From Oryzibacter oryziterrae (GTDB lineage Bacteria > Pseudomonadota > Alphaproteobacteria > Rhizobiales > Pleomorphomonadaceae): 32,000 bases of DNA. The stretch lies in NCBI RefSeq assembly GCF_021864535.1, contig NZ_JAKJIC010000012.1, positions 29,343-61,342 on the forward strand, given 5' to 3'. The translations under genes were made by a program, and so were the position numbers. Below, one piece after another: positions 11,474 to 29,873 of the stretch. The notes under the pieces are model-generated. The model was not told the DNA's origin. It did no database searches and saw only the letters and a program-made list of their open reading frames with translations. Position 1 is the stretch's first letter; each line of letters begins with the position of its first letter.

Positions 11474-11475
11474 CC

Positions 11476-12801: not shown

Positions 12802-13484
12802 TGTTCAAACGACCCTCCACCCACTACGGCAAATCGCCGGAACCCGAGACGCCCTATCAGCGAGCTGCCCAGGTCTGGGACGATCGCATCGGCTCAGCCC
12901 GTGTGCAGGCGAAGAACTGGCGCTTGATGGCCTTCGGGTCACTGGCCTTGTCGGCTGGTCTCTCTGCCGCGTTGGTGTGGCAATCGTTGAGCGGCTCGGT
13001 CGTGCCGTGGGTGGTGCAGGTCGACAAGCTCGGCCAAGCGCAGGCCGTAGCTCCGGCAACCGCCGACTATCGGCCGACCGATCCGCAGATCGCTTTCCAT
13101 CTCGCGCGCTTCATCGAAGAGGTCCGCTCGATCCCAGCCGACGCGATCATCGTCCGCCAGAACTGGCTCCGGGCCTACGACTTCACCACGCAGGCCGGCG
13201 CATTGGCGCTCAACGACTACGCCCGCGCCAACGACCCCTTCACCAAGGTCGGCAAGACGCAGATCGCCGTCGATGTCTCGAGCGTCATCCGCGCATCGCC
13301 CGACAGCTTCCGCGTCGCCTGGGTCCAGCGGACCTATCAGGACGGCTCGCTCGCCTCCACCGAGCGCTGGACCGCCATCCTGACCGTTGTCGTGCAGGTA
13401 CCGCGCGACGCCGAAAAGCTCCGGGCCAACCCGCTCGGAATCTACGTCACCGCCATCAACTGGTCGAAGGAGCTGACCCAATGA
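12801..13484 (+). CDS. trbF: TrbF (VirB8-like)
   Basis: TGATG overlap with trbL. An N-terminal TM segment ('LMAFGSLALSAGLSAALVW') is followed by a periplasmic domain, and 'NPLGIYVTAINWS' is typical of TrbF. Confidence 0.88.
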   Translation: MFKRPSTHYGKSPEPETPYQRAAQVWDDRIGSARVQAKNWRLMAFGSLALSAGLSAALVWQSLSGSVVPWVVQVDKLGQAQAVAPATADYRPTDPQIAFHLARFIEEVRSIPADAIIVRQNWLRAYDFTTQAGALALNDYARANDPFTKVGKTQIAVDVSSVIRASPDSFRVAWVQRTYQDGSLASTERWTAILTVVVQVPRDAEKLRANPLGIYVTAINWSKELTQ

Positions 13485-14524
13485 CGCCGACCTTCCGCAA
13501 AGCCGCCCCCGGACAAGCGGGACGTCCGGCTTTCCGTAAATCCGCCTTGCCGCTTCTCTTGGCTTTCACATCCGTGCTCGCCGGCTGCGCCACGGCGCAG
13601 AAGCCGCCCGAGATCTCCTATGACGATGCGGCGCCGGCCGTCATCGCCTCCGATCCGCCGGCTCCGGTTCGGGTGGTGGAACTGCCGAAGCCGCTGCCGT
13701 TGCCCGGTCAGTTGAAACCGGTCGGCAAAGACGGCAAGGCGACGCCCGAGTTGCCGGACCCCGCCGCGCGGGTGAACGAGGCCAATGCCGCTGCACGGAT
13801 GCAACCGGTCAGGAACGGCTTCATCAACGCCATCCAGGTCTATCCCTTCGTCGATGGTGCGCTCTATCAAGTCTACACCGCTCCGGGGCAGATCACCGAC
13901 ATTGCCTTGCAGCCCGGCGAAACGCTGGTCGGCTCAGGTCCCGTCGCCGCCGGCGACACGGTGCGCTGGATCATCGGCGACACCGAGAGCGGTGTAGGCG
14001 CGACGAAGCAGGTCCACATCCTCGTCAAGCCGACGCGGTCCGAGCTGATGACCAACCTCGTCATCAACACCAATGCGCGCACCTACCATATGGAGCTGCG
14101 CTCGACCGAGAAGACCTATATGGCCTCGGTGTCCTGGCAGTATCCACAGGATCAGCTCATTGCGCTGCGCCGGCAGAACGCCGAGGCGCAAGCCGTCCAG
14201 CCGGTGGCGACCGGCATCGATCTCGCTCGCGTCAACTTCCGTTACGAAGTGACCGGCGACCGCGCACCGTGGCGGCCGCTGCGCGCCTTCGACGACGGCC
14301 GCCAGGTCTTCATCGAGTTCCCGCGCGGCATCGGCCAGGGCGAGATGCCACCGCTCTTCATCGTCGGTCCGGAGGGCGATACCTCGGAACTGGTGAACTA
14401 TCGCGTCCGCGACAACTACATGATCGTCGACCGGCTGTTTGCCGCCGCCGAGCTGCGTTTCGGCGCCGACAAGAACCAGAAGCGCGTTCGCATCTCCCGC
14501 ACCGACGGGAGGCCGGCGTCGTGA
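13481..14524 (+). CDS. trbG: TrbG (VirB9-like), lipoprotein signal
   Basis: ATGA overlap with trbF. A lipobox 'SVLAGC' is present, and 'YQVYTAPGQITDIALQPGE' and 'RWIIGDT' are VirB9/TrbG-like. The upstream part of the track ORF (12734-13480) overlaps trbF and is rejected. Confidence 0.88.
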   Translation: MTPTFRKAAPGQAGRPAFRKSALPLLLAFTSVLAGCATAQKPPEISYDDAAPAVIASDPPAPVRVVELPKPLPLPGQLKPVGKDGKATPELPDPAARVNEANAAARMQPVRNGFINAIQVYPFVDGALYQVYTAPGQITDIALQPGETLVGSGPVAAGDTVRWIIGDTESGVGATKQVHILVKPTRSELMTNLVINTNARTYHMELRSTEKTYMASVSWQYPQDQLIALRRQNAEAQAVQPVATGIDLARVNFRYEVTGDRAPWRPLRAFDDGRQVFIEFPRGIGQGEMPPLFIVGPEGDTSELVNYRVRDNYMIVDRLFAAAELRFGADKNQKRVRISRTDGRPAS

Positions 14525-15744
14525 GCGAGATCGCCCCCGATCGTCAGAAGCCGGGCGCGGACGACGAGGTCCGGCCGTTGACCGGAGAGCCGGTCGCGCC
14601 GATGCGGCTGCGGCCCGAACCGCCGCGCGTGACGCGCCTGTCGCGAAAGGTGCTGATCGTCCTTGGCTTGCTTGCCGGCACCGGTATCGGCGGCACGTTG
14701 ATCTACGCGCTCCAAACCCGGCACGGCGGCAAGACGAACGAGGAGCTGTATTCGACCGACAACCGGACGACGCCCGACGGCCTCGCCGCCCTGCCAAAGG
14801 ACTATGCCGGTGTCCCGAAGCTCGGTCCGCCGCTGCCGGGCGACCTCGGCCGCCCAATCCTCAGCGCCCAGAACGCCGGCCAGCCCGTACCAACACCGGG
14901 GATCGCGACGCCCAATCCGGGGATCAGTCAGGAAGAGCAGCGCCGCATCCAAGAGCTGGAGGCGGCGCGGACGGCCCGTCTCTTTGCTTCGACCGAGACG
15001 CGGCCAGCCAACACGGCTGTCCCGCAGCCGCAAGCGACAGTCTCGCCGCAGACGGACCTTTCCAGTCTCGGGCTTGCGCCACCGCCCGCGACACCATCAG
15101 CGCAGGATCGTCAGGTCGCGTTTCTGAACCAGACACCCGACAAGCGCACCGTCTCGCCGGATCGCGTCGCCGCTCCCACGTCGGCCAATGTGCTTCAGGC
15201 CGGGGCGGTGATCGCGGCGGCGCTCATCACCGGCATCCGCTCCGATCTCCCCGGCCAGATCATCGCGCAGGTGACGGAGAACGTCTATGACAGCCCGACC
15301 GGGCGCATCCTGCTCGTGCCGCAGGGCACGCGGATCGTCGGCCTGTATGACAATGGCGTGGGCTTTGGTCAGCGCCGCATCCTGCTCGTTTGGAACAGGC
15401 TGATCTTCCCCAACGGCCGCTCGATCGTGTTGGAGCGCCAGCCAGGTGCAGACGCCGAGGGCTATGCCGGGCTCGAAGATGGCGTCGACTACCATTGGGG
15501 TGAGCTGTTCAAGGCCGCGGCGCTGTCAACGCTGCTCAGCGTTGGTGCCGAGGCAGGATCATCGAGTCAGGAGAGTGACATCATCCGCGCGCTGCGCAAC
15601 GGCGCATCCGACAGCATCAACCAGACCGGCCAGCAGATCGTGCAGCGCCAGCTCAACATCGCGCCGACACTGACCATCCGACCGGGTTTTCCCGTCCGTG
15701 TGATCGTCACCCGCGATCTCGTGCTTGAGCCCTACGGAGGCTGA
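14521..15744 (+). CDS. trbI: TrbI (VirB10-like)
   Basis: The GTG at 14521 overlaps the trbG stop (GTGA). The product has a TM segment 'VLIVLGLLAGTGIGGTLIYAL', a Pro-rich linker, and a conserved C-terminal domain with 'GAVIAAALITGIRSDLPGQIIAQV' and 'RPGFPVRVIV'. Confidence 0.88.
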   Translation: MSEIAPDRQKPGADDEVRPLTGEPVAPMRLRPEPPRVTRLSRKVLIVLGLLAGTGIGGTLIYALQTRHGGKTNEELYSTDNRTTPDGLAALPKDYAGVPKLGPPLPGDLGRPILSAQNAGQPVPTPGIATPNPGISQEEQRRIQELEAARTARLFASTETRPANTAVPQPQATVSPQTDLSSLGLAPPPATPSAQDRQVAFLNQTPDKRTVSPDRVAAPTSANVLQAGAVIAAALITGIRSDLPGQIIAQVTENVYDSPTGRILLVPQGTRIVGLYDNGVGFGQRRILLVWNRLIFPNGRSIVLERQPGADAEGYAGLEDGVDYHWGELFKAAALSTLLSVGAEAGSSSQESDIIRALRNGASDSINQTGQQIVQRQLNIAPTLTIRPGFPVRVIVTRDLVLEPYGG

Positions 15745-16189: not shown

Positions 16190-16417
16190 ATGGAAGGCGA
16201 AGCTGAAGTGGCAGACACGCCGGACGCATTTCTTAAGGCGTTGGCAGAAAGCCTAAAGGGAAAGGAAGGTGTCGATGCCGGAATGGCGGACATCCTTAAG
16301 ACCCACATCTTGAAAGTGGCACCTGCGCAGAACGCCGTCGCTCAGGCCAAGGACGCCATCCTGAAACTCGCAGGCGAACGTGCCAGTCCTCCTAAGCCGG
16401 AGTTGGCCAATGGCTGA
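16190..16417 (+). CDS. Small acidic hypothetical protein, first gene of the uncharacterised cassette
   Basis: 75 aa from the ATG at 16190 (strong gggagga lies 7 nt upstream), or 83 aa from the alternative ATG at 16166. The product looks helical and is Glu/Asp/Lys/Ala-rich. Its stop overlaps the ATPase start by 8 nt (ATGGCTGA). I recognise no family. Confidence 0.5.
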   Translation: MEGEAEVADTPDAFLKALAESLKGKEGVDAGMADILKTHILKVAPAQNAVAQAKDAILKLAGERASPPKPELANG

Positions 16418-18893
16418 TCCTTACTTTCTTCAGTCCTTGGGCCTTTCCGGGTTTCGCGCGTATCTCCAACCGAAGACGTTCGATTTCAGCAAGAAGCGTT
16501 GCTTGGCGATCTTCGCGCCGAACGGCAGCGGCAAATCCAGCGTCATCGATGCGCTGGAATTCATGTTCTCCAAGGACGGAACGCTCGAAAGGCTCGGGCA
16601 GCGCGCCATCAACAACCAGGCTGGACCCGTGGCGCTGGCGCACAATCTGGCTGAGGAGGCGAAGATTGCAGCGGCGGTTACGATCGGCGTGGTCTCGGGC
16701 AAGGATGCCACCAACGGCAGTCGACCGGCGACGGGGGCGAAGCGACCGATACCGGCGGTGGCCACGGCAGTGAACGCCTGCTTCGCGGTGCCGCCGATCA
16801 TCCGCGGGCATGCGCTGCGCACGTTCGTCGAAATCCATACGCCCGAACAGCGCTACGCGGATGTCGCCAATTGGCTGCAGCTCGGCCCACTGGTTGAGGT
16901 GCAGAAGAATATTCGTTCGCTGCGCACGCAGGTGAAGGCTGCGGCCGAGGACGAGACGACGCTGCAGCGCGTGGATACCCAGCTTGCCAAGGAGACGGCC
17001 CAGGGGGTGAAAGCCTGGGATTCGGCGGCGGTGCTTGCCTACGCCAACGTGTCTGTCCTGGCGCCGCTCGATCCGGCGCTGATGCTGGCGACGGTGGCGG
17101 CCGGCGATCCGGCCTATCTCGAACTGGAATCGCGCGCCAAGGCCGAGGAGAACAAGATCGGACTTGCGGGCCTGCGCCAGATCCGTAATGCCGCAGCCGC
17201 TTTGCGAGCGGAGGCGACCGATACGGAGAGCGGCGAGACTGTCGTCAGCGGTGCGATTCCGATCTTTGACGCGGCTGTCGCGGCTCTGTCGGCGGCGGAG
17301 AGTAAGGAAACGGAAGAACGGGGCAAAGCGGCGAGCACCGTGTTTCAGGCTTTGTGGAAAGCCGCAGAGCCGCTTTTTGCCGAAGGGGTGGCGGCACCTG
17401 ACATTTGCCCCGTCTGCGCGACACCTGTCGCGGACACGGCGGCTGGTAGCGCTGAGACGATCCGGGAACACATCGCCAAGCACCTCGAGGAGTTGGCGGA
17501 CTACGCTGCCGCCAAGAAGGCGCTCGACGAGGCCAAGACTGCGGCGACCAAGGCCCATACCCAGTTGGTAGCGGCGCTGCCGGGACTGATTGGCCACCTC
17601 GGCGACGGCGAGGCTGCATTGAAAGCCGATCTTATCGCCTATCAAGCAGGCATCGCCGGCTGGCCTCAGACCGCCGTTCCGGCCTCGGCCGACATTGTTT
17701 CGGCAATCGCCAAGCTGCTCGCTACGCTCGATCAGGCCATCGCCGACATCGAATCGAAGCAAGGCGACCACACCTATATCAAGGCCAAGGCGAAGATCGA
17801 TCGACTGCTGGAGCTACAGACCGAGCGGAACCTTGCGCTGCGAACGCTGGATGAGCTGGGGAAACTCTCCAACGCCTTGACGGCGCAGGCGACGATAATC
17901 TCAGCCGAAATCCGCAAGAAGGTGCAGGCTCTGCTCGACAAGCTTCAGACGCCCATGAACGATATTTACAAGCTGATCCAGGGCGCTGGCGCCACGCCAA
18001 TCCGGCTGGAGCTGCCGGCGGAAGACGACACGAACCAGCAGCGGCTCAACCTCCTGATCGACTTCGCCAAGAACCGCACGGGCGTGCAGCCGGGCGGCTA
18101 TTTGAGCGACTCACAGATCCATTCGGTGGCCCTGGCGTTGCGGATGGCGGCGATCCAGCAGTTTAACGTCGGCGCGCCCATCATCGCGCTGGATGACATC
18201 GTCACCTCCTACGATGCCGATCATCGGCGCACCATTGCCGGGCTCATCGCCACCATGTTCGGCAACTGCCAGATCCTGATCACCACGCACGACGAGCGGT
18301 TCTTCAATTATTTGAAGGATCAGCTCGAGGCGAAAGCGTGGCACTTCACCCGGATCATTGGCCTCGATCCGGCCTACGGGCCGCGTTTCGCTGATCACAA
18401 GGTCAGCGATGAGATGATCGAGGCGCGTTGGGCGGCGGGCCAGTCGGCGGCCAACGAGATGCGCCAGGCCGAGGAGGAATGGCTTCTCGGCATCTGTCGG
18501 GATTTCGGGGTCAGCGTCCGCATCCGACCGCTGGAGAGGGCCTATTCCTACGAACGCAGCGAGTTGGCCTCGGCGCTCGCCGGCCTGCTCAAGGATGCCA
18601 AGCTGGCGCCGGCGCTGGTGCCGGGCGTCAACAACCGGTTCCTCGACAGTTTGGTGAAGGGCGAGATCGAGAATTTCGGCAGCCACTTCCAGGACGGGCC
18701 CTATGGCGACGGTTCGATTGGTGACGAGAAGGCGCGCTGGGAGGAGTTCAAGGCTTTCCGCAGCCAGTTCGGCTGCAAGAAGTGCAGTCGAACGAAATTC
18801 CAGCGGCCCTTTACTCTCAAAAAGCCAGTTTGTGCGCATGATGGCTGCGAGGCGCAGTTCGAGTTTGCGGCAGCGCCGGCAGGGGTGGCTTGA
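16410..18893 (+). CDS. Rad50/SMC-like ABC ATPase with CPVC hook in a long coiled coil and a C-terminal Cys4 zinc ribbon
   Basis: 827 aa. Walker A is 'APNGSGKS' (16515-16538). The sequence between the two ATPase head halves is Ala/Leu/Glu/Lys-rich and coiled-coil-like, with 'DICPVCATP' in it (CPVC at 17406-17417). The C-terminal head half carries 'YLSDSQIHSVALALRMAA' (signature-like), 'PIIALDDIVTSYD' (Walker B / D-loop) and 'ILITTHDERFF' (H-loop). A roughly 200-aa tail ends in CKKC...CAHDGC (18774-18848). Confidence 0.85.
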   Translation: MADPYFLQSLGLSGFRAYLQPKTFDFSKKRCLAIFAPNGSGKSSVIDALEFMFSKDGTLERLGQRAINNQAGPVALAHNLAEEAKIAAAVTIGVVSGKDATNGSRPATGAKRPIPAVATAVNACFAVPPIIRGHALRTFVEIHTPEQRYADVANWLQLGPLVEVQKNIRSLRTQVKAAAEDETTLQRVDTQLAKETAQGVKAWDSAAVLAYANVSVLAPLDPALMLATVAAGDPAYLELESRAKAEENKIGLAGLRQIRNAAAALRAEATDTESGETVVSGAIPIFDAAVAALSAAESKETEERGKAASTVFQALWKAAEPLFAEGVAAPDICPVCATPVADTAAGSAETIREHIAKHLEELADYAAAKKALDEAKTAATKAHTQLVAALPGLIGHLGDGEAALKADLIAYQAGIAGWPQTAVPASADIVSAIAKLLATLDQAIADIESKQGDHTYIKAKAKIDRLLELQTERNLALRTLDELGKLSNALTAQATIISAEIRKKVQALLDKLQTPMNDIYKLIQGAGATPIRLELPAEDDTNQQRLNLLIDFAKNRTGVQPGGYLSDSQIHSVALALRMAAIQQFNVGAPIIALDDIVTSYDADHRRTIAGLIATMFGNCQILITTHDERFFNYLKDQLEAKAWHFTRIIGLDPAYGPRFADHKVSDEMIEARWAAGQSAANEMRQAEEEWLLGICRDFGVSVRIRPLERAYSYERSELASALAGLLKDAKLAPALVPGVNNRFLDSLVKGEIENFGSHFQDGPYGDGSIGDEKARWEEFKAFRSQFGCKKCSRTKFQRPFTLKKPVCAHDGCEAQFEFAAAPAGVA

Positions 18894-19613
18894 ATGGGAG
18901 GGCGTGCGAAACCAGTAGAGCTGGCGACGCGCAGCTTCGAAAAGCAAGGCGACGCCACGGCTTTCTTCAAGGCCATGCTGAACCGCTACCGGCCTGGTGA
19001 GCGAGTGAGTGACGAGGATGGCCTCGACGTTGCCGCCCTTCTCGAACGCCACACCGAATATGTCGCCAAGGTGGGCTGTGGCGTCAGCCATTTCCAGGTC
19101 ATGATGACCGAGCATGGGACGCAATGCTTCCGGATCATCCGCACCGATGGCAGCGGCACGGATTTCTCCTATCCACACTGCATCTCCCAGCGACCACCCA
19201 GCCGTAAGCAGGAGGTCGCTCAAGCCTTTCGACGTGCGGTGCGCTTCGATCTCTACAAGGCCCGCGATAATTTCTTCGCCACCCACAGCGGTTCTGACGG
19301 TTTGGTTTCTTGCGCGGTCACCGGCGAACGCATCGCGCGGGACGAGGCGCATATGGATCACCGTCCGCCAATGACCTTCGAGGTCATCGTGACGACGTTT
19401 CTCTGCGGGCGCGGTCTATCACTCGACGATGTGCCGCTCACGACAGGCAAGGATGATCAAGTCTCGCCCGAGGTGACCGATGACGCCCTGAGCGAGGCGT
19501 TCCGAGCCTACCACGCTGGGATCGCGCGCCTCGATTTCGTGCGGAATACCGTCAACCTGGCCCAAGCCAGTCGGCATCGGCTGAAGGACGGCCGGATCAC
19601 GCTGACAGGATAG
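18894..19613 (+). CDS. DUF3223 (DCL)-like N-terminal domain fused to an HNH-like nuclease motif
   Basis: The ATG abuts the ATPase stop (TGAATG). The N-terminal 'FFKAMLNRYRPGERVSDEDGLDVAALLERHTEYVAKVGCGVSHFQVMMTEHGTQCFRIIRTDGSGTDFSYPHCI' resembles DUF3223/DCL from memory. The C-terminal half has 'CAVTGERIARDEAHMDHRPP' (H-M-D-H at 19350-19361) and a downstream 'FVRNTVNLAQ', an HNH-like H...N pattern. The assignment needs an HMM or structure check. Confidence 0.65.
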   Translation: MGGRAKPVELATRSFEKQGDATAFFKAMLNRYRPGERVSDEDGLDVAALLERHTEYVAKVGCGVSHFQVMMTEHGTQCFRIIRTDGSGTDFSYPHCISQRPPSRKQEVAQAFRRAVRFDLYKARDNFFATHSGSDGLVSCAVTGERIARDEAHMDHRPPMTFEVIVTTFLCGRGLSLDDVPLTTGKDDQVSPEVTDDALSEAFRAYHAGIARLDFVRNTVNLAQASRHRLKDGRITLTG

Positions 19614-19825
19614 CCGCTGCTTACCACGAGAGTTTAGTCGCGCTTTCTCGTCTCATCGACGTACTGGGAAAATATGAGGTCGGCGGCGACGCTGTCGTCG
19701 TCCGGCACCGCTCGGCCAAGCTTCGAGAAGGATGGTGGTGGGCGAAAACCGGGGATTCCCAAGCCAGCCAGCTTGTGATAAAACCTCTGCTACATATTTC
19801 TTTGTCAGAGGAAACGTCACCGTCC

Positions 19826-20446
19826 ATGCCATCCACTAGCGCCCAGCGGCTTCGTGCGCTGAAACTTCTAGAAGCCCGAGGTATGCTCCGGCTGAAGGAG
19901 TTCGTTGCCGAAGGCATCGGCCCGGAGACGCTTGCGCGCCTTGTCCGGGAGGAGGCGGTCATCCGCCCGGCACGTGGCCTCTATCAACTCCCCGACGCAC
20001 ACGTCGAGGCTGCCCATACGCTGGCTGAAGCGGCGGTTCTGGTTCCAAAGGGCGTGGTCTGCCTAACCTCAGCCCTCCAATACCACGAACTGACGCTGCA
20101 GATGCCGTCGGCTGTATGGATGGCGATCGACCGTGCCGCCTGGCGGCCCAAGATCGATTATCCCCCTATTCGGTTCGTGCGCTTCACTGGGGCGGCACTG
20201 ACCGAAGGGGTCGAGCGTCACCGCATCGAGAATGTCGACGTTCCCATCACGGATCCGGCGAGGACAATTGTCGATTGCTTTCGCTACAGGACGAAGATCG
20301 GCCTCGACGTCGCGATGGAGGGACTGCGCGAGGGTCTCCGCCGTCGCCGATGCAAACCGGATCAAATCTGGCGTTACGCGCGCAAGGCGCGGGTCTGGTC
20401 GATCATGCGTCCTTACGTCGAGGCAATGGTGTCTGATGCCGCGTGA
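19826..20446 (+). CDS. abiEi: AbiEi-family antitoxin / transcriptional regulator (type IV TA)
   Basis: 206 aa from the ATG at 19826. 'LLEARGMLRLKEFVAEGIGPETLARLVREEAVIRPARGLYQL' is the AbiEi N-terminal wHTH pattern, and 'GVVCLTSALQYHELT' and 'TDPARTIVDCFRY' are typical of the family. The gene precedes and overlaps an AbiEii gene. Confidence 0.85.
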   Translation: MPSTSAQRLRALKLLEARGMLRLKEFVAEGIGPETLARLVREEAVIRPARGLYQLPDAHVEAAHTLAEAAVLVPKGVVCLTSALQYHELTLQMPSAVWMAIDRAAWRPKIDYPPIRFVRFTGAALTEGVERHRIENVDVPITDPARTIVDCFRYRTKIGLDVAMEGLREGLRRRRCKPDQIWRYARKARVWSIMRPYVEAMVSDAA

Positions 20447-21356
20447 GCCTCGCAACATCGGCGCATCAGTGCGAGCGCGGCTCCTCGATCGGGCACGTGC
20501 CGAGCGATCGGATTTCCAGATTCTCCTGACGCGATATGCGCTCGAGCGTCTGCTCTACCGGCTAAGCGCGTCGCCGCACCGCGACCGCTTCATCCTCAAA
20601 GGTGCGATGCTCTTCGTGACATGGGTCGCCGATCCGTTTCGGCCCACGCGCGATCTGGATCTGCTTGGCCACGGCGACAGCGACGCCGAGGCAATTGCCG
20701 AAACCTTCCGGGCCATTTGTGCGCAGCCGGTCGCCGATGACGGTGTGACGTTTGATGTCGCCGCGCTGATGGCGGCCCCGATCCGTGAGGAGACGGAATA
20801 TGGTGGTGTGCGGGTCCGCACAACGGCAACCATCGCCGGGGCGCGTATTCCGATCCAGGTCGACATTGGTTTCGGCGACGCCATTACACCTGCGGCCGTC
20901 GAGATCGACTATCCCACCCTGCTGGACGCCCCAACGCCGCGCCTTCGCGCATATCCGGTCGAAACGGTGGTGGCCGAGAAATTCGAAGCGCTCGTAACGC
21001 TCGGCGTGGCCAATAGCCGGCTCAAGGATTTCTATGATCTCTGGGTGATCTCCCGAACATTCGAACTTCGCCAGGCTCCCCTTGTCGAGGCAATTCAGCG
21101 GACCTTCGAACGACGCGGAACGGTCCTCCCGTCTGTTGTTCCGGTCGGTCTGACCGATGAATTCGCGGAAGCATGGACCGCTCAATGGCGCGCCTTCCTG
21201 GACCGGGACCGGATGGCAGCCGCACCAGATGCTTTCGCCGCTACCGTCGCCGATCTTCGCCTCTTCTTGATGCCGTTGGTCGTCGGATTGAAGGAGGAAC
21301 GAATTTGGCCGCCGAACGGGCCGTGGTCGCCGGGGGAAGCAATCAATGAGGCGTAG
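20436..21356 (+). CDS. abiEii: AbiEii/AbiGii-family nucleotidyltransferase toxin
   Basis: 306 aa. The ATG at 20436 overlaps the abiEi 3' end by 11 nt. 'FILKGAMLF...RPTRDLDLLGHGD' is the NTase G-x / DxD-type core of AbiEii, and 'KFEALV...RLKDFYDLW' is the conserved C-terminal motif. Confidence 0.88.
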   Translation: MPREPRNIGASVRARLLDRARAERSDFQILLTRYALERLLYRLSASPHRDRFILKGAMLFVTWVADPFRPTRDLDLLGHGDSDAEAIAETFRAICAQPVADDGVTFDVAALMAAPIREETEYGGVRVRTTATIAGARIPIQVDIGFGDAITPAAVEIDYPTLLDAPTPRLRAYPVETVVAEKFEALVTLGVANSRLKDFYDLWVISRTFELRQAPLVEAIQRTFERRGTVLPSVVPVGLTDEFAEAWTAQWRAFLDRDRMAAAPDAFAATVADLRLFLMPLVVGLKEERIWPPNGPWSPGEAINEA

Positions 21357-21432: not shown

Positions 21433-22737
21433 ATGGATAAGAAGCACTTTTATCGCGTAGGCAGCCACTCTGGCGCCTGGGACGATCTACCCACTGACCC
21501 AGATGAACTGGATTCTCTGACCAATAGTGCTCGAAAGCACATCGAGCCGTGGCTCTCTGCTGTCTTCCAAGCAGAGCACCTCAACCTACTGCTCGGCAGT
21601 GGGTTCACCGCAGCGATTGGTTATCTCGCGGGCGTAGGGGCCACAGGCATGGCCAAGGTTACATTTGGCACGTCTTATGACGCCGCCATCGATGCGCACG
21701 CCCAGGCCGGAGCGACGGCCATGAAAAGAGGTGCGGCAAACATCGAAGATCAGTTTCGAAGTGCGCTTGCTCTGCTCGAGGGCCTGGGGGTCATAGACAA
21801 GGGAGCAGAAAAAACTCTTAAGGATGGCATTGATGCCCAGATGTCTGGCTTCCTCACTTCATTATTGAAGACGGAAAGCGGGATTGTTGCTGGAAAGGAT
21901 CCGACATCGAAAGATGCTGCCCAGGGCGCTCTGCAATCATTCCTGCTGAGTTTTGCGAGCCGCGCTGCATCCCGTGAACGTTTGCACGTCTTCACAACCA
22001 ACTACGACCGCCTGATCGAACATGGTTGCGACTTTGCGGGTCTTCGGATCATCGACAGATTCGTCGGCGCGCTGAATCCGGTCTTCCGCGCGTCGCGCGT
22101 TGAAGTTGATGTCCACTACAATCCACCCGGCATTCGGGGAGAACCGCGGTTCATGGAGGGCGTCATTCGCCTGACTAAGCTCCACGGCTCACTGGATTGG
22201 TTTTTTGATAAGGACGAGCGGCGAATCTACCGCAAGGGCATCCCATTCGGAGCGCCTGCGGATCATACCGACATTCCCAAAAAACCCGTCGACACGGTGA
22301 TGATCTATCCCAATCCCGCGAAGGACGTCGAAACAACACAGTATCCCTATGCGGAGCTCTTTCGCGATTTTGCGGCAGCAGCTTGCCGACCTAACGCCGT
22401 TGTCGTGACCTATGGCTATGGTTTCGGCGACGATCACGTCAATCGAGTGCTGCTCGATATGCTCACGATCCCGTCGACCCATTTGGTGATCATGGCCTAT
22501 TCGGCTGACGATCGCCTCAAAGCATTCGTTGAAAAGACGCGAGATGCGCAAGTCTCGTTGCTGATCGGGCCTCATTTCTCGGATCTTGCAACGTTGGTTG
22601 CAAGCTACCTGCCGAAACCGGCGCTCGACTACATATCGGGCCGAATGACAGAATTGTTGAAGCATCGTCCAGGCGATCCAAAACTCAGCGACCCGCCTGC
22701 CGCACCGCCTTCAGTGACTGCAACCGGGCCGGTATGA
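21433..22737 (+). CDS. SIR2-family (SIR2_2-like) NADase-type protein, partner of HerA
   Basis: 434 aa from the ATG at 21433 (the track starts at a TTG at 21421). SIR2-type motifs present are 'LLLGSGFT', 'VFTTNYDRLIE', 'LTKLHGSLDW' and 'TYGYGFGDDHVN'. A HerA gene follows 7 nt downstream, which is the layout of the known SIR2-HerA defence pair. Confidence 0.85.
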   Translation: MDKKHFYRVGSHSGAWDDLPTDPDELDSLTNSARKHIEPWLSAVFQAEHLNLLLGSGFTAAIGYLAGVGATGMAKVTFGTSYDAAIDAHAQAGATAMKRGAANIEDQFRSALALLEGLGVIDKGAEKTLKDGIDAQMSGFLTSLLKTESGIVAGKDPTSKDAAQGALQSFLLSFASRAASRERLHVFTTNYDRLIEHGCDFAGLRIIDRFVGALNPVFRASRVEVDVHYNPPGIRGEPRFMEGVIRLTKLHGSLDWFFDKDERRIYRKGIPFGAPADHTDIPKKPVDTVMIYPNPAKDVETTQYPYAELFRDFAAAACRPNAVVVTYGYGFGDDHVNRVLLDMLTIPSTHLVIMAYSADDRLKAFVEKTRDAQVSLLIGPHFSDLATLVASYLPKPALDYISGRMTELLKHRPGDPKLSDPPAAPPSVTATGPV

Positions 22738-22744
22738 GGCGATC

Positions 22745-24856
22745 ATGACAACTCCAATCGAACGACTGTCGGGCCTTGTTGTCGGTGTCGTCGAGTCGGT
22801 TGCGCCTGACGAAGTTCGGGTGCTCCTTGAACTGGACGCTCCGCACTCCACAGCATTGAATACCGGAGTGCCGGCGGGGTTTCCGCGTCTCAATGGGTAT
22901 GTGATCATCCCAAATGAAGCCGGTGCGACAGTCGCCTACATAACCTGGATTGGGATCGAACGCTCTCCCTATCCAAAGCGCTCTGGCCTGAAAGACTTTG
23001 GCCTGATCGATCTTCCATTTCCACTACGGAAGATGTCGCTATCGCCAGTGGGTACATTGACATCTCGGCGCGACCGCGCTTCGGGAATGACCAGATACGA
23101 ACTCTCTCGTGGCGTGGTAGCGTTTCCGTCAGTGGGGGACCAAGTCCTTATCCCGACACCCCCGCAGGTCGAAGCCATCGTGGGCGCGAGGGACGACGAT
23201 AAGAGAGTCAGAATAGGCTCCTCTCCGATGGCATCGAACGCGGCCATCATGGTCGACCCTGACAAGCTTTTCGGTCGGCACCTGGCGGTATTGGGAAACA
23301 CCGGCAGCGGTAAATCATGCACGGTAGCGGGCCTGATTCGATGGTCCATGGAGGCCGCCGAGAAGGCCATCAAGGATGCCGGCAAGACGGGGGTGCCCAA
23401 CGCGCGGTTTATCATCCTCGATCCAAATGGCGAATACGCCAGGGCCTTCGCTGATCGCGGAGACGAGCTACGGTTGTTTCGCGTTCCACCCGTTGCAGAT
23501 GGAGAGCGACCGCTCGATGTCCCTGCGTGGCTCTGGAGTGGGCACGAGTGGACCGCGGTCGCTCACGCCCAACCAGGGGCGCAACGCCCGTTGCTTATGC
23601 AGGGGCTGCGGGAGCTGAAGGCCGGTCAAACGGAGGGAGTGCCCAGAGAGGCGATGATCCGCCGCTACCTTGGTTCCTATTCGATCCGGATATCGGCGAT
23701 GTTGAACACTGGCACGCAGGCCTTCGCGGGGGCTCCGAGACCGAGATTCGAGTGCGCGCGGCTCCTTGAAACGATCGCGTCAGATTGTTCGCAGTTTGGC
23801 GGGGAGGCCCTCGATACAGCTAGCGGCGCTCTTGCCGCGATTTCCACCACGATCACAGGGATTGTCGATAGCCGACGATCTGGAAATTTCTTCAACGATT
23901 TTGCGATTTCCGACCTGGAAACGATCCGCAGCGCACTGGATGCATTGGCTCAGACGCTGCCGGATATCGGTCACGCAGCCCTCATCAGTGAGGACGCTCC
24001 ACAGTTCTTTGACGTAAACATTCTCGCCGAACATCTTGATCGGGTGGCAACCGAGCAGGGAGGTAACCTCGCAGGGTTTATCTCGACGCTCGGACTTCGG
24101 ATTCGCGGAATGCTCGCCGATCAGCGGCTCGGCGCCGTAATTGGTCGCGACCCGCCGACTTCCTTCGAAACCTGGCTGAAGGATTATGTCGGCGACGATG
24201 GCGCGAGTAACGGCCAGATCGCGGTCGTCGATCTGTCTCTCGTCCCATCCGAAATCGTCCACATCGTTGTGTCCGTTTTGGCGCGGCTGATCTTCGAATC
24301 GCTTCAGAGATACCGCCGCGGCCATCCGAAGGGCCAGACCTTGCCGACAGTCCTCATTCTCGAGGAAGCGCATACATTCGTTCGGCGCGGCAAGGACGAT
24401 GACGGCCCTGCCTCATCTCCGACCCAGCTCTGCCGCGAAGTGTTCGAGCGTATAGCCCGCGAGGGGCGCAAGTTCGGGCTCGGGCTCGTCCTTTCGTCGC
24501 AGCGACCATCAGAGCTTTCTCCAACGGTTCTCGCCCAATGCAACACGTTTCTGCTGCACCGTATCGTCAATGATGCGGACCAGAATCTCGTCGCACGCCT
24601 CGTCCCCGACAATGTCGGTGGGCTCTTGCGTGAGCTGCCGAGTTTGCCTTCCAGGCAGGCCGTTCTCCTTGGTTGGGCAGCGCCGATCCCGGTTCTGGTG
24701 GAGGTGGACGAATTGCCTGATGCACAGAGGCCGCAGTCGGCAGATCCGGATTTCTGGAACGTTTGGACGCTGGCCGAAGAGCGGAATGTCGATTGGGACT
24801 CAATTTCGAAAGCATGGTCGGGCTCTGCTCCGGTGCAACTGCCGGAGGAAGAATGA
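22745..24856 (+). CDS. herA: HerA-like (DUF87/FtsK-HerA superfamily) ATPase
   Basis: 703 aa. An N-terminal barrel-like region ('GLVVGVVESVAPDEVRVLLE') is followed by Walker A 'VLGNTGSGKS', Walker B 'TVLILEEAHTF' and 'GLGLVLSSQRPSEL'. Confidence 0.88.
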   Translation: MTTPIERLSGLVVGVVESVAPDEVRVLLELDAPHSTALNTGVPAGFPRLNGYVIIPNEAGATVAYITWIGIERSPYPKRSGLKDFGLIDLPFPLRKMSLSPVGTLTSRRDRASGMTRYELSRGVVAFPSVGDQVLIPTPPQVEAIVGARDDDKRVRIGSSPMASNAAIMVDPDKLFGRHLAVLGNTGSGKSCTVAGLIRWSMEAAEKAIKDAGKTGVPNARFIILDPNGEYARAFADRGDELRLFRVPPVADGERPLDVPAWLWSGHEWTAVAHAQPGAQRPLLMQGLRELKAGQTEGVPREAMIRRYLGSYSIRISAMLNTGTQAFAGAPRPRFECARLLETIASDCSQFGGEALDTASGALAAISTTITGIVDSRRSGNFFNDFAISDLETIRSALDALAQTLPDIGHAALISEDAPQFFDVNILAEHLDRVATEQGGNLAGFISTLGLRIRGMLADQRLGAVIGRDPPTSFETWLKDYVGDDGASNGQIAVVDLSLVPSEIVHIVVSVLARLIFESLQRYRRGHPKGQTLPTVLILEEAHTFVRRGKDDDGPASSPTQLCREVFERIAREGRKFGLGLVLSSQRPSELSPTVLAQCNTFLLHRIVNDADQNLVARLVPDNVGGLLRELPSLPSRQAVLLGWAAPIPVLVEVDELPDAQRPQSADPDFWNVWTLAEERNVDWDSISKAWSGSAPVQLPEEE

Positions 24857-26085
24857 TCCGTATTCTGCACACGGCTGATTGGCATATCGGTCAAACTTTA
24901 CGCGGGTTCTCGCGGGAGCACGAGCACCATAAGGTGTTTGAGCGGCTTGAAGAGATCGTCGTGGAGCGAGATGTCGACGCCCTCGTTATCGCCGGCGACG
25001 TGTTTGACAGCCAAAATCCCTCCGGGGAAGCGCAACAGCTCTTCTACAATACGCTCGTGCGGCTGAGCCGCGCACATCCGCGCATGGCTATGGTGATCGC
25101 TGCCGGCAACCATGATGCCGCTGGTCGGTTGGAAGCGCCGCGGCCTCTGTTGGAGGCATTCAACATCCGCGTCGTGGGCAATGTTCGGCGGCGTGAAGGG
25201 CGGGTCGAGGCCGCACGCCATCTCGTTCCTATCGCTGACGCAAGCGGTGCGGTAGCTGCTCATGTGCTTGCAGTCTCCTACCCAACCGCAGCGTGCCTTC
25301 CGAATTTGACACGGCTGGATGGTGAAGCAGGCTCGCCCGTCATCGCTGGCGTGCGAAGCCTCTATGCCGAATTGGTCGATACGTTGCGGGGACCGATGGA
25401 TGGTCTACCGTTCGTCCTAACGGGACACCTCCATGTCGCGGGAGGTATCGAATCGGAAGGCGCAGAGCGGCGAATTCTGGTCGGTGGCCAGCATGCCGTG
25501 CCGCATGACGTGTTCCCGGCAGAAGCGAGCTACGTGGCGCTTGGCCACTTGCATAAGGCTCAGGCTATTGGCCGCGATACCGTCCGCTATTCCGGTTCAC
25601 TGATCCCTTTGTCCGCGACGGAGCTGTCCTACGCGCATGGGGTCACTCTTGTGAGCCTCGACGGTACAGCGGTTCTATCTGAGCACATCTCGATTGACCG
25701 GCCAGTTCCCTTCATCCGCCTTCCTGAAGCGGGCGATATGCGGTTGAGCGAATTTGGTGATCATCTGAAAGCAATGGACCTCTCATCGGACCTACCGCTT
25801 CATGAGCGGCCATTCGTCCAGGTCAGGCTTGCCCGCGAAGGGTTGTCTCCCGGGTTCAGAGAGGAGGTCGACCGCATCGCGGAGAGCTTCCCGGTGCGCA
25901 TCGTCGATACCCGTGTTGCAGCAATACCCGGGGCGTTGAATGACGTGATCATCGCCGATCCTATGATGCGGCTGGCGGAAAGAGATCCGGAGGATCTGTT
26001 CAAGCTTGCATTTGAACGCACCCTCGGCGTCGCCCCGGATGCTGCTCACCTGGATGTCTTCCATCGAGCACGGGCGGAGATATAG
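24853..26085 (+). CDS. sbcD: SbcD/Mre11-family nuclease
   Basis: 410 aa. The ATG at 24853 overlaps the herA stop (ATGA), with ggaggaag upstream. All the phosphoesterase motifs I checked are intact: 'HTADWHIG', 'VIAGDVFD', 'AAGNHD', 'LTGHLHV' and 'ALGHLH'. Confidence 0.92.
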   Translation: MIRILHTADWHIGQTLRGFSREHEHHKVFERLEEIVVERDVDALVIAGDVFDSQNPSGEAQQLFYNTLVRLSRAHPRMAMVIAAGNHDAAGRLEAPRPLLEAFNIRVVGNVRRREGRVEAARHLVPIADASGAVAAHVLAVSYPTAACLPNLTRLDGEAGSPVIAGVRSLYAELVDTLRGPMDGLPFVLTGHLHVAGGIESEGAERRILVGGQHAVPHDVFPAEASYVALGHLHKAQAIGRDTVRYSGSLIPLSATELSYAHGVTLVSLDGTAVLSEHISIDRPVPFIRLPEAGDMRLSEFGDHLKAMDLSSDLPLHERPFVQVRLAREGLSPGFREEVDRIAESFPVRIVDTRVAAIPGALNDVIIADPMMRLAERDPEDLFKLAFERTLGVAPDAAHLDVFHRARAEI

Positions 26086-26087
26086 CC

Positions 26088-29000
26088 ATGCGGATCTTGG
26101 CTATCCGCGGCGAGAATCTGGCAAGTCTTGGCGCTCCCTTCGAGATCGATCTTGCCGCAGAGCCTCTTGCAGGTTCCGGCCTCTTTGCCATCACTGGCGA
26201 GACCGGCGCCGGGAAATCGACTATCCTCGACGCGCTCTGCCTCGCGCTCTATGGCGAGTATCCGCGCGTCTCTGTTAGCCGTCGTGAAAATACCCCCGAT
26301 CCCAGCGGAGAGGCGATTTCAATTCATGATGGCCGGGCGATCCTGCGTCGCGGCGCTGGGAGCGGATATGCCGAGGTGGATTTCGTCGGGCAGGATGGCG
26401 AACGCTACCGCGTTCGCTGGGAGGCCAATCGGGCGCGGGGGCGAGCAAATGGGCGGCTGCAGAATGAGCAGCGCTCGCTGTATCGACTTGACGACGGCAG
26501 TGCGGTGGCGACCGGCAAGACTCAGGTCCGCGAGGCGGTGGAGACGAGAACTGACCTCACATTCGATCAGTTCCGGCGAACGGTGCTCCTCGCGCAGGGC
26601 GAGTTCGATGCCTTCCTGCTCGCCGCCGAGAGCGAGCGCGCGGAATTGCTCGAGAAGATCACAGGCACCGAAATCTACGCAGCGATCTCGGTCCGCGTTC
26701 ATGATGGCACCGACGCACGACGAAGAATTGTCGAGCAATTGGAGCAGCGTCGGAACGACATTGGACTTCTTGATGACGAAGCCATGCAGGCGCTGCTGGA
26801 GGAGCAAAGCCAGCTTGCTTCGACCATTGCTCAAAAAGGTGCTGAGCGCGATCAACACAGCGAGCGATTGGATCATTTCAAGCGCGTCGCTGCTGCTCGC
26901 GGCGATCTCGCACGGGCTGAGGCCCAGGCGGTCGCAGCGCGCGCCGCACGCGAAGCAGCCGCCAATGAGTATCAATCTCTTGCCGAGTTCGATCTCGTCG
27001 AGCCGCTTCGTCCGCTAGCGGGTGATATACAAAATGCACGACGGACGGCAGCGGAGGCCAAGACCCGTCTCGACGGCTTGCTCATTGCGCGCGAGGAAGC
27101 GCGGACGCTGGATGCAGCGTCTACAACGCAACTGGCGGACGCTGTAACCGCCAACGTAGCGGCAGAAGACGTCCTCAAGAACTTCGGTCCCCTTTGGAGC
27201 GACGCCGAGAGGCTCGACGCCGAGCTGACGACAGCTCGGACGGAGTTTAATGATGCGGTGGAAAAATCGCAGCAAGCGGAAGCTACACTGCGCGATAAGG
27301 CCAATGCGCTGGCCACGATTGATCAGGCTCTCGGTCAGACATCAGAATCGTACCGCACAACCGCGGCGCAATTAAGCAATCAATCGGATCGCGTTCTTCT
27401 TGCTGATCGTCTTGGCGATGCGATGGACTTGTTGGCGAAGCGGGGAGCGCTCCAGCAGGAACACGCTACAGCCACGGTGGCGGCCATTGGAGCGGAAGAA
27501 ACAGCGACGCGATTGCAAAGTGAAATAATCACCCTGTTGGAAAAGCTCACCGAGGATCGTGAGCGAAAGAATGGCCTAAGTCGTGAAATCGCTGATCGTA
27601 GAGCCGGTCTTGCCGGCATCGACGAGGCGACGCTCCACGAACGAGACATCGATCTGCAGCGCGCGCTCGAGGCTCTGCGCGAGGCAAGTACCGTCTGCGA
27701 CCGGCATACTCGAGCATCGGCAGATCTAACACGGCGAGAATCGGAACACACGCTGGCGGCGCAAGAGGTAAGCACAGCGAAAAGCCAAATTGTTGAAGCC
27801 GAAGCGGACCAGCTCCGCGATCGGACCGCACGTGCGGAAATTGTTCCAATCGCAGAGCTCGCCGACGAGGCTGTCTCATCTGAGGCCATTCATCTGCGCA
27901 GCCTGCTGGCCCCAAATTTGGCCTGTCCGGTGTGCGGCAGCACCGACCATCCGCATCTTGCGCATCCCAGCGCGCTGAATGAAATTGCTGCTAGGCTTCG
28001 CCGCCGACGCGAAGAACTCGATGCCGCGTTGACCACGACGGGCCAGCGTTTGGACGCTGCAACGCGCGCGCTCTCCGCTGGAGAAGCTCGCCAGACGGAG
28101 ACAAACCGCGGAATCGATGTGGCGCGCGGACAAATTCTGGCTGCCAACAGCGCTTATGGCGAACAGTTGTCGTCCTTGAACGATCTCTGCACGAAGGCTG
28201 GGATCGAGGAGGGTGTACCTCCCGTTCTCGATGACCAGGCTGCGTCGAAACTGGCGGCCCATATCTCAGTCGCGATCGCAGAACGATCAGCCATTGCATC
28301 TCCACTCGCAAACGCGCGCCGTCTTCGGACTGAGATCGACGGTTTGCAACGGGAGCATGACGCGCTCGGCGAGGCGATCGAGACGACCGCGCGGTCCATC
28401 GACCAAAGACGTTCTGATTTCCACGCCGCGCAATTGAAGGCAACTGAGTACACGGTTCAGGCGGCGGGCCTTGCTGAGCGCCTCATTTCCATTCGCCGTG
28501 AAATCACGCCGTTTCTCGCTGCAGCAGGTCTGGCCGTCGATGACCTCGATGTCGATCCCACCGGTGTTAGCGTTACGCTGTCAACAATCGCGACGGAGTA
28601 TGCTGCCCTGCGCGAACAGGTTGGCCAACTTGAAATGACGCTCCAGCGTTTGGCGCCCGAGCGTGCAGCCGCGGGCGCCTCGCTTGAGCACGCGCAGGTG
28701 CAGGTGACGACGACGGCACTTCTTCTTGATCAACGTCGCATGGCCGAGGGAGAGAAGGCGCGCGCCAGAGCTCAACTTCTCGATGGCGAGGCGACAGCAA
28801 GCCACCGGACTCGGATCAATGAGGCTTGCCGGACCACCCGTGAGGCGCTCGCGCTCGCGCGCGAGACGAAATCCGCCACCGATGCAGCGTTCCAGGCGGC
28901 CGGCGCTCGTTGCGACGAGGCCGCCGCTGGATTGGAGACCGCCAAAGGCCGCAGTGCTTTAGCCGAAGAGGCATTCAACGCTGCGTGCCTGGATATTGCT

Positions 29001-29873
29001 CGCTCGTCAGACCAGGTTGCCGCGCTGATCGCAGCCGACCCAGCTTTGAGCAGAGCGTTGCGGGTCCGAATTCAGGAGATCGACCGAGGCGTGAACGATG
29101 CCGGCACCGCAGTGCTTACGCGCCAGAGTGACTTACACCGGGCGTTGGAAGGTTTCGACGAGACCACCGATGCAGAGGCGTTGGCCGCAGTCGTCGCGGC
29201 GTTGGCAACAGAAATCGGAGACTTGCAACAACGGACAGGTGTGCTTGCTGCTACGCTCGCGCGAGACGACGAGGCACGCCGCGCCGCCGCAAATCTATCT
29301 GCGGAAATCGACACCGCGAAAGCGGAACTCGCAATCTGGCAGGCAGTCGACGATGCTGTCGGCTCGGCCAGCGGTGATCGTTTCCGCCGCTTTGTGCAGG
29401 GCATCACACTCGACCACATGGTGCAATTGGCGAATGATCACCTCCACGCATTGACCCCCCGCTATAGGCTCGCGCGGGGGGCAGCGTCCGATCTCACTCT
29501 GCATATCATTGATCGCGACATGGGCGACGAGGTCCGCGGGACGCGAAGCCTGTCAGGCGGTGAACGTTTCCTGGTCTCCCTTTCGCTGGCGCTCGCTTTG
29601 TCAGGTCTCGAAGGACGATCGTCCTTTGTCGACACACTGTTTATCGATGAAGGCTTCGGATCGCTCGATGCGGAGACGCTCGACCTGGCAGTAGATGCGC
29701 TGGAGACCTTACAAGGTAGAGGTCAGAAGGTTGGCGTCATCACGCACGTCGCTGCCATGATCGAGCGGATCGCCGTGCAGGTTCGCGTAGAAAAACGTGG
29801 CGCTGGAAGATCGGAGATTAGAGTTTCCGATGGCATGGGAGCAGCATGGCCTACTACGAGTAGCGCGCAATAG
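26088..29873 (+). CDS. sbcC: SbcC/Rad50-family ATPase with zinc hook
   Basis: 1261 aa, starting 2 nt after the sbcD stop. Walker A 'GETGAGKST' and Q-loop 'LLAQGEF' are present. A very long coiled coil carries 'LACPVCGSTDHPH' (CPVC at 27924-27935). The C-terminal head half has the signature 'LSGGERFLVSLSLALALS', Walker B 'LFIDEGFGSLD' and the H-loop 'GVITHV'. Confidence 0.93.
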   Translation: MRILAIRGENLASLGAPFEIDLAAEPLAGSGLFAITGETGAGKSTILDALCLALYGEYPRVSVSRRENTPDPSGEAISIHDGRAILRRGAGSGYAEVDFVGQDGERYRVRWEANRARGRANGRLQNEQRSLYRLDDGSAVATGKTQVREAVETRTDLTFDQFRRTVLLAQGEFDAFLLAAESERAELLEKITGTEIYAAISVRVHDGTDARRRIVEQLEQRRNDIGLLDDEAMQALLEEQSQLASTIAQKGAERDQHSERLDHFKRVAAARGDLARAEAQAVAARAAREAAANEYQSLAEFDLVEPLRPLAGDIQNARRTAAEAKTRLDGLLIAREEARTLDAASTTQLADAVTANVAAEDVLKNFGPLWSDAERLDAELTTARTEFNDAVEKSQQAEATLRDKANALATIDQALGQTSESYRTTAAQLSNQSDRVLLADRLGDAMDLLAKRGALQQEHATATVAAIGAEETATRLQSEIITLLEKLTEDRERKNGLSREIADRRAGLAGIDEATLHERDIDLQRALEALREASTVCDRHTRASADLTRRESEHTLAAQEVSTAKSQIVEAEADQLRDRTARAEIVPIAELADEAVSSEAIHLRSLLAPNLACPVCGSTDHPHLAHPSALNEIAARLRRRREELDAALTTTGQRLDAATRALSAGEARQTETNRGIDVARGQILAANSAYGEQLSSLNDLCTKAGIEEGVPPVLDDQAASKLAAHISVAIAERSAIASPLANARRLRTEIDGLQREHDALGEAIETTARSIDQRRSDFHAAQLKATEYTVQAAGLAERLISIRREITPFLAAAGLAVDDLDVDPTGVSVTLSTIATEYAALREQVGQLEMTLQRLAPERAAAGASLEHAQVQVTTTALLLDQRRMAEGEKARARAQLLDGEATASHRTRINEACRTTREALALARETKSATDAAFQAAGARCDEAAAGLETAKGRSALAEEAFNAACLDIARSSDQVAALIAADPALSRALRVRIQEIDRGVNDAGTAVLTRQSDLHRALEGFDETTDAEALAAVVAALATEIGDLQQRTGVLAATLARDDEARRAAANLSAEIDTAKAELAIWQAVDDAVGSASGDRFRRFVQGITLDHMVQLANDHLHALTPRYRLARGAASDLTLHIIDRDMGDEVRGTRSLSGGERFLVSLSLALALSGLEGRSSFVDTLFIDEGFGSLDAETLDLAVDALETLQGRGQKVGVITHVAAMIERIAVQVRVEKRGAGRSEIRVSDGMGAAWPTTSSAQ

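Follow-up and report, generated by a model that had tools for sequence, protein, structure and literature searches.

Previous studies have described and validated SIR2-HerA as a two-gene system (PMC11472057, PMC11514289, PMC13434337), and phage protection with depletion of nicotinamide adenine dinucleotide (NAD+) is known for its relatives (PMC11514289, PMC13434337). Chromosomal SbcCD threatens the hairpin telomeres of phage N15 (PMC12624138), and insertions in sbcD restore conjugation into resistant strains (bioRxiv 10.64898/2026.07.06.735840); therefore SbcCD can act against foreign DNA alone. Here we analysed a stretch of 32,000 nucleotides (nt) from Oryzibacter oryziterrae, called as a whole the window, in which a SIR2-HerA pair is directly followed by SbcD and SbcC (SbcDC), and compared it with related loci (designated L001, L003 and so on). 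No paper describing SIR2-HerA (Nezha) linked with SbcC, SbcD or Mre11 was found in the searched literature. The four-gene block has long been inherited as a unit, and neither pair requires the other for its maintenance. With a probability of about 0.55 we read this as two autonomous modules fused into one co-expressed and co-inherited block, in which SbcDC is no core component of SIR2-HerA.

The four-gene block and its junctions

The block lies on the + strand and begins with a SIR2-family protein of 434 amino acids (aa) (21433..22737; PADLOC, Pfam and structure alignment), the putative NADase-type effector of a SIR2-HerA (Nezha-family) pair. Its start was placed at the ATG at 21433, and the open reading frame (ORF) opens earlier, at the TTG at 21421. 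SIR2 matched the PADLOC model PDLC04079 over its full length (E=2e-204) as well as Pfam SIR2_2, and aligned to 8j4u_A, the SIR2 chain of solved SIR2-HerA complexes, with FTTNYD and KLHGS kept and with the alignment to solved structures spanning only about residues 158-354. The partner, a HerA-family hexameric ATPase/translocase (22745..24856, 703 aa), matched PADLOC PDLC04098 over its full length (E=0) and Pfam DUF87, and its Walker A (GNTGSGKS) and Walker B (LILEEAH) motifs line up with those of 8wiv_A.

SbcD (24853..26085, 410 aa), a Mre11-type metallophosphoesterase nuclease of a mobile-element lineage, passed the TIGR00619 cut-off (202 bits against 77.65) and had a weak Pfam SbcD_C match (20.1 bits against a cut-off of 24.4); phosphoesterase motifs I-V were intact relative to E. 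coli SbcD 6s6v_A (HTADWH, AGDVFD, GNHD, TGHLH and GHLH). SbcC (26088..29873, 1261 aa; NCBIfam and structure alignment) is a Rad50-type ABC ATPase with a coiled coil and a zinc hook. Its top NCBIfam match was PRK10246, the E. coli-type SbcC, at 404 bits (under the equivalog cut-off of 750), and a further NCBIfam model gave 252 bits (under its cut-off of 478.5). It aligned to E. coli 6s6v_C at both head halves and at the hook, where CPVCGS matches the E. coli CPLCGS, and Walker A (GETGAGKS), the Q-loop (AQGEF), the signature (LSGGE), Walker B (LFIDEGFG) and the H-loop (ITHV) were all present.

The spacing of these genes is very tight: 7 nt between SIR2 and HerA, a shared ATGA (24853-24856) between HerA and SbcD, and 2 nt between SbcD and SbcC. 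At the herA/sbcD junction (24844..24856, + strand; defined from sequence and locus comparison) a Shine-Dalgarno-like GGAGGAAG (24844-24851) precedes the ATGA stop/start overlap, and the same site forms the left boundary of a mobile SbcDC cassette. A consensus scan gave promoter-like and terminator-like counts at or below those in shuffled sequence and no credible site at this junction, although the E. coli-type consensus used is a poor model for alphaproteobacteria and the result is weak evidence either way. Judging from the -4-nt overlap and the gaps, none above 8 nt, a common transcript for the four genes is probable, and translation of sbcD is probably coupled to herA termination. An initial annotation of the window had described four packed same-strand genes with these same gaps and overlap and a ribosome-binding site (RBS) in front of sbcD, had considered the catalytic motifs it checked in all four proteins intact, and had assigned SIR2 and HerA to a known two-gene anti-phage kind. 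The gene packing was confirmed from the sequence, the motifs by alignment to solved structures, and the assignment by full-length PADLOC matches, motifs and adjacency.

Conservation of the block

One genome per species was scanned with a HerA alignment, and the 80 loci obtained were then searched with the four window proteins; extra loci came from SbcD searches of a plasmid collection and from look-ups of SbcD homologues. SIR2 and HerA were paired in 80 of the 80 related loci, and window-type SbcDC stood directly 3' of herA only in the closest alphaproteobacterial relatives of this survey. The complete SIR2-HerA-SbcD-SbcC block was found in at least 15 distinct loci from at least 12 alphaproteobacterial genera or families, including Rhizobium, Mesorhizobium, Bradyrhizobium, Methylocella, Rhodomicrobium, Sphingomonas, Hansschlegelia, Acidiphilium, Hyphomicrobium, and Rhodospirillales and Stellaceae metagenome-assembled genomes (MAGs), among others. 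The adjacency is thus conserved elsewhere and not unique to this element. The distance from the herA stop to the sbcD start was -4 nt in twelve locus entries and +5 to +8 nt in six.

Synonymous divergence (dS) from the window was concordant across the four genes of each locus and ranged from about 0.3 to about 1.4 (for example, the four values are 0.32, 0.45, 0.29 and 0.32 in L012, and 1.45, 1.03, 1.59 and 1.36 in L172). The ratio of nonsynonymous to synonymous divergence (dN/dS) was 0.04-0.07 for SIR2, 0.04-0.05 for HerA, 0.06-0.09 for SbcD and 0.13-0.19 for SbcC, indicating purifying selection on all four genes. Therefore, the four genes have long travelled together as one inherited unit.

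Several observations concern HerA itself. In L031 (3416-5545) HerA is a mosaic, only 67% identical to that of the window with a dS of 1.6, while SIR2, SbcD and SbcC are 97%, 95% and 89% identical, and nucleotide homology to window positions 23610-24211 is absent; this suggests that part of the gene was replaced by recombination. Window HerA is unusually conserved: identity of 76-97% extends across several phyla, with values of 76-85% in proteins with Terriglobia/Acidobacteriia, Polyangia and Syntrophales annotation and in the Nitrospira MAG locus L021. Such conservation implies that HerA has recently spread far by horizontal transfer, that it is very strongly constrained, or both. In Rhizobium sp. 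MHM7A, an annotated truncated HerA shows 100% identity to window HerA over the covered part.

Separability of the two pairs

SbcDC belonging to this clade (SbcD 80-94% identical) was found intact but without SIR2-HerA in at least 8 settings. On a plasmid of R. indicum it adjoins an OLD-family ATPase, kinases and Shedu; elsewhere it was found behind a 1315-aa ATPase, behind an SMC-like ATPase, behind an integrase, behind a Multi_ubiq/ThiF cluster, on a RepC plasmid and, in Bosea, among metabolic genes. L083 shows a clean deletion corresponding to window positions 21459-24697, with a 159-nt herA tail left and SbcDC retained; in the unlinked loci other than L083, the sequence upstream of the RBS/ATG boundary had no relation to the window. 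In a tree of SbcD and SbcC, unlinked loci were nested within linked clades with bootstrap values of 99-100%, and the basal branch (Bosea) and the outgroups were unlinked. The nesting makes one fusion followed by repeated separations the simplest history.

The opposite loss was also observed. In L005, L007, L008 and L009/L010, SIR2 and HerA are full-length and only decaying 5' remnants of sbcD are left, with four different breakpoints (24957, 24910, 24902 and 25460) that indicate at least four independent deletions. In L011, SIR2 and HerA are likewise full-length, and sbcDC has been replaced from the sbcD start. Among about 59 loci with HerA of at most 85% identity and enough downstream sequence, SbcDC was present in none. 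Since each pair is maintained without the other, SbcDC is no core subunit of SIR2-HerA.

Other genes accompany SIR2-HerA as well. AbiEi/AbiEii keeps its place upstream of SIR2 in 16 of the related locus entries and has left remnants in two others, and AbiE is a well-known autonomous system; the AbiEii-SIR2 junction measures 76 nt, and the herA-sbcD junction is tighter and longer-lived. In many beta- and gammaproteobacterial and some other SIR2-HerA loci, a DNA methyltransferase lies within a few nt of the herA stop, several times with a 4-nt overlap. Loci with a methyltransferase or another gene past herA include L041, L042, L046, L047, L049, L058, L059, L064, L070, L077, L080 and others; the methyltransferases belong to N6_N4_Mtase or Eco57I/N6_Mtase, RmuC takes their place in L046, and in L005 a GASH-domain gene follows 281 nt after herA. 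An association of SIR2-HerA with restriction-modification (R-M) may thus be recurrent. Because AbiE is co-inherited too and herA overlaps with unrelated defence genes, the weight of a junction that is tight and co-inherited is weakened, and the comparison shows that tight overlaps and long co-inheritance alone are insufficient to call neighbouring defence genes one system. The initial annotation had proposed a four-component system. In its obligate form the proposal was not borne out: SbcDC stands alone in at least 8 contexts, SIR2-HerA survives the loss of SbcDC, the wider SIR2-HerA family lacks it, and AbiE is co-inherited almost as faithfully.

The SbcDC lineage

The SbcD clade of the window (80-100% identical) sits on conjugative plasmids and in regions resembling integrative and conjugative elements (ICEs) of many genera, Rhizobiales plasmids included. 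Outside the clade, the next SbcD matches on plasmids and chromids were 66% and then at most 45% identical, and among representatives of 50%-identity clusters the nearest were 44-56% identical (56, 50, 49, 47, 44 and so on), grading continuously into ordinary SbcD. By these two comparisons the SbcCD of the window belongs to a mobile plasmid/ICE clade distinct from chromosomal copies, and orthology to a housekeeping copy was not found. Window SbcD is thus a mobile twig at the tip of the normal SbcD family and no new fold or family. In the unlinked loci other than L083, homology of the SbcDC cassette to the window starts at 24841-24854 (RBS/ATG) and ends at about 29820-29923.

A metagenome scan with an SbcD alignment gave, among the matches listed, only distant relatives (at most 65% identity), which supplied the outgroups L089 and L090. 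The outgroup SbcDC of L089 (5449-13017; SbcD 65% identical) has an AbiEi/AbiEii pair directly upstream. AbiE-SbcDC was considered as an ancestral pairing and dropped, the L089 AbiE being not detectably homologous to that of the window (E>1e-8). In L172 (13123-15771), L174, L175, L179 and L182, a convergent AAA_13/SMC_N ATPase of about 883 aa lies just past sbcC and marks one SbcDC sublineage, with or without SIR2-HerA.

SbcC was split or frameshifted in L003, L181, L083 and L175, with neighbouring genes intact, which could be real pseudogenisation or assembly error. With the highest dN/dS and repeated splits, SbcC is the least constrained of the four genes.

A probable fusion of two modules and the alternatives

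Under the favoured reading of two fused modules, the fusion would have taken place in the ancestor of one alphaproteobacterial mobile-element lineage. The first module, by analogy with the characterised relatives, would be a SIR2-HerA abortive infection system in which the HerA ATPase ring controls the SIR2 NADase, so that NAD+ is depleted on infection. The second would be a plasmid- or ICE-borne SbcCD that cuts hairpins and blocked DNA ends, as its E. coli-type architecture and intact motifs suggest. Most likely, SbcDC would act as an independent anti-foreign-DNA or DNA-end-processing module co-expressed with SIR2-HerA, and any cooperation between the pairs would be additive or optional.

Several points weigh against this reading. 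Defence systems often have accessory genes that are optional, and separability therefore does not exclude cooperation. The herA/sbcD junction is at most 8 nt in every linked locus although its sequence varies (ATGA, GTGA or 5-8-nt spacers), divergence is concordant across the four genes over the whole dS range, and in the HerA subclade of at least 90% identity every member has or once had SbcDC downstream. Further, other Mre11/Rad50-like pairs occur beside SIR2-HerA. In L011 (a Hyphomicrobium MAG, HerA 94% identical; 12114-15940), another metallophosphoesterase, of 375 aa, starts 4 nt past the herA stop and is followed by a 900-aa SMC_N/AAA_23 Rad50-like ATPase; in L040 (an Acidobacteriota MAG, HerA 54% identical; 1113-12082), three tightly packed genes, for an SNF2 helicase, a metallophosphoesterase and a 1100-aa SMC-like ATPase, end 124 nt before the start of SIR2. 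That such pairs recur hints at selection for having them together with SIR2-HerA. Finally, in an E. coli type III Sir2-HerA system studied in 2026, exposed DNA ends activate the ATPase and thereby relieve ATP inhibition of the NADase, and the triggers include Gp5.9, which inhibits end processing by RecBCD (PMC13434337). With DNA ends gating Sir2-HerA in this way, a nuclease that generates or unblocks ends would be a mechanistically sensible partner.

These points lead to the first alternative, a facultative four-gene system in which SbcDC would be an accessory, sensing or amplifying so that defence by SIR2-HerA becomes broader or sharper. SbcCD would open hairpins or unblock protein-capped or replicating foreign DNA, and the resulting ends would feed the HerA ATPase, relieve ATP inhibition and release the SIR2 NADase; alternatively, SbcCD would degrade DNA after HerA has acted. 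We consider this possible but rather unlikely. It agrees with a junction kept between -4 and +8 nt over a dS of about 1.4 with all four genes under purifying selection, with the ancestral linkage of the whole HerA subclade of at least 90% identity to SbcDC, with the gating of the E. coli type III NADase by DNA ends (PMC13434337), and with the HerA-NurA analogy raised in structural papers (PMC11472057). However, each half has been kept intact without the other many times, AbiE is nearly as well co-inherited, unrelated genes commonly overlap the end of herA tightly, SbcC is under the weakest constraint and most often broken of the four genes, and the linkage itself figures in none of the literature searched.

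The replacement of SbcDC by another Mre11/Rad50-like pair in L011 and the third kind of pair in L040 also speak for a facultative system, but each comes from one MAG contig, and pairs of this sort are plentiful: 112 alphaproteobacterial plasmid records carry the L011-type "DNA repair exonuclease + AAA ATPase" pair. The adjacency may therefore reflect shared residence in defence islands. In Rhizobium sp. Pop5, an L011-type pair stands behind a 1994-aa DUF4011/AAA_11/AAA_12/DUF3320 helicase. Homologous recombination through a conserved 5' motif of sbcD was rejected as the cause of the L011 arrangement, the similarity being at the protein level only, with no long identical stretch. The three unrelated pairs (window-type SbcDC, the L011 exonuclease with its 900-aa ATPase, and the L040 set of SNF2, exonuclease and SMC-like ATPase) support a broader and similarly unlikely proposal, namely that SIR2-HerA systems repeatedly recruit Mre11/Rad50-type nucleases as optional front-ends or amplifiers, with SIR2 replacing NurA, in a bacterial, immunity-directed convergence on archaeal HerA/Mre11/Rad50.

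It is quite improbable, in our estimate, that SbcDC has no defence role and serves the DNA metabolism of the conjugative element or its host (repair, transfer or replication intermediates, hairpin removal), hitch-hiking beside defence cargo. Canonical E. coli-type SbcCD architecture and motifs would fit such a role, as would the continuous grading of the family into ordinary SbcD, the unlinked Bosea copy among metabolic genes, and a 50%-identity relative located among non-defence genes on a 1.45-Mb contig. But the clade has spread horizontally over at least 12 genera, nearly all its members lie amid defence or toxin-antitoxin (TA) genes on plasmids and ICEs, with AbiE, SIR2-HerA, an OLD-like ATPase, Shedu, MmeI R-M, a ubiquitin-like cluster and AAA_13 ATPases as neighbours, and the "DNA repair exonuclease + AAA ATPase" pair that is common on Rhizobium chromids is a different one. 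Chance or recent adjacency unique to this element is refuted by at least 15 loci in at least 12 genera with concordant divergence, and we give it practically no weight.

The fusion of two modules stays the preferred reading. If the halves do cooperate, a canonical DNA-repair nuclease complex (SbcCD/Mre11-Rad50) would for the first time be seen in nature as part of NAD+-depleting abortive infection, and the block would offer a genetic handle on DNA-end sensing by Sir2-HerA, a step recently demonstrated biochemically in E. coli. Should the halves be independent instead, the data still define a mobile SbcCD lineage, a sharply bounded cassette in the defence islands of rhizobial plasmids and ICEs, and this cassette is a candidate for an anti-phage or anti-plasmid module that works by itself.

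The surrounding island

Upstream of the block, the window carries a Trb (P-type) type IV secretion operon (6368..15744, + strand) with TrbB, TrbE, TrbL, TrbG/CagX and TrbI (Pfam T2SSE, CagE_TrbE_VirB, TrbL, CagX and TrbI), and this region has nucleotide matches of about 80% to plasmid trb operons. Behind trb, all on the + strand, follow an SMC-like ATPase with a DUF3223 protein, AbiEi/AbiEii, SIR2-HerA and SbcDC. The first of these pairs (16380..19613), a candidate defence pair, consists of the SMC-like ATPase (16380-18893; Pfam SMC_N, AAA_23 and AAA_13) and a DUF3223/HamC2-like protein (18894-19613; Pfam DUF3223); by PADLOC, the ATPase was LmuB-like (E=6e-26) and the DUF3223 protein was HamC2 (E=1.5e-55). 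The full pair is kept in L003, L013, L034 and L083, and L170 and L086 have the ATPase only, followed in L170 by a short DUF3223 remnant; the two genes may be an uncharacterised two-gene defence candidate. The AbiE pair (19775..21356), a type IV TA/abortive-infection pair, comprises the AbiEi antitoxin (19775-20446; PADLOC E=3e-83) and the AbiEii toxin (about 20436-21356; PADLOC E=4e-164).

The GC content is 65-68% in the trb region and 56-63% in the cargo. With a trb operon, defence genes behind it and a GC drop in the cargo, we regard the locus as a defence island on a conjugative element. The block had been called ICE cargo; homologues of trbB, trbE, trbL, trbG and trbI make the conjugative-element part of that description plausible, and the window does not distinguish an ICE from a plasmid. 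Downstream of sbcC (29874-32000) lie several ORFs of 140-190 aa; searches of Pfam, PADLOC and the plasmid collection gave no match for this segment, which is common only to L001 (99% identical).

Comparison with known systems

The first two genes resemble SIR2-HerA/Nezha (Gao_Her_SIR) in their adjacency on the same strand, intact motifs and strong matches to PADLOC models and solved complexes. They differ in scoring below the NCBIfam equivalog cut-offs (SIR2 115 bits against 500 for NF042942; HerA 221 against 850 for NF042944), which makes the window pair a different subfamily of the same kind. Moreover, the subclade of the window has sbcDC at most 8 nt after the pair, and published descriptions are silent on sbcDC.

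With E. coli-type SbcCD, the last two genes share the order of sbcD then sbcC, an SbcD that passes TIGR00619, and the SbcC heads, long coiled coil and CxxC hook. In contrast to it, the SbcCD of the window is found on conjugative plasmids and ICEs in defence islands, as a horizontal cassette from 24844 to about 29923, and its SbcC is about 210 aa longer than that of E. coli and under the equivalog cut-offs.

The archaeal herA-mre11-rad50-nurA operon also encodes a HerA-type ring ATPase together with a Mre11-type nuclease and a Rad50-type ATPase, and in the window block a second HerA-docking enzyme takes the NurA "slot" by analogy (PMC11472057). Unlike in that operon, no ORF of the window block had a NurA domain (Pfam), the window HerA belongs to the defence clade by its low scores against NF040819 (109 bits against a cut-off of 970) and NF040937 (105 against 800), and the linkage to SbcDC is confined to the HerA subclade of at least 90% identity in one alphaproteobacterial lineage, where it was repeatedly lost. 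The block had been interpreted as a bacterial echo of the archaeal operon; without NurA, with a HerA that is not the archaeal repair equivalog and with a linkage that arose in one alphaproteobacterial lineage, the likeness is at most analogy or convergence, not shared ancestry.

To Lamassu and other SMC-like systems the block is related by a partial match of SbcC to LmuB models (E=9e-30) and by a similar logic, in which a DNA-end-sensing coiled-coil ABC ATPase is coupled to a nuclease (PMC12663957, PMC10586767). It differs in having a true SbcD metallophosphoesterase and a zinc-hook SbcC and in lacking LmuA and LmuC equivalents. Membership of SbcC in Lamassu was rejected on these differences, the LmuB match covering the shared SMC/Rad50 head region.

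Defence islands of packed independent systems share with the window their dense, co-oriented genes, the exchange of modules at gene boundaries and a site behind trb; the block differs from them in its herA-sbcD junction, which at no more than 8 nt is tighter and longer-lived than the 76-nt AbiEii-SIR2 junction of the same island.

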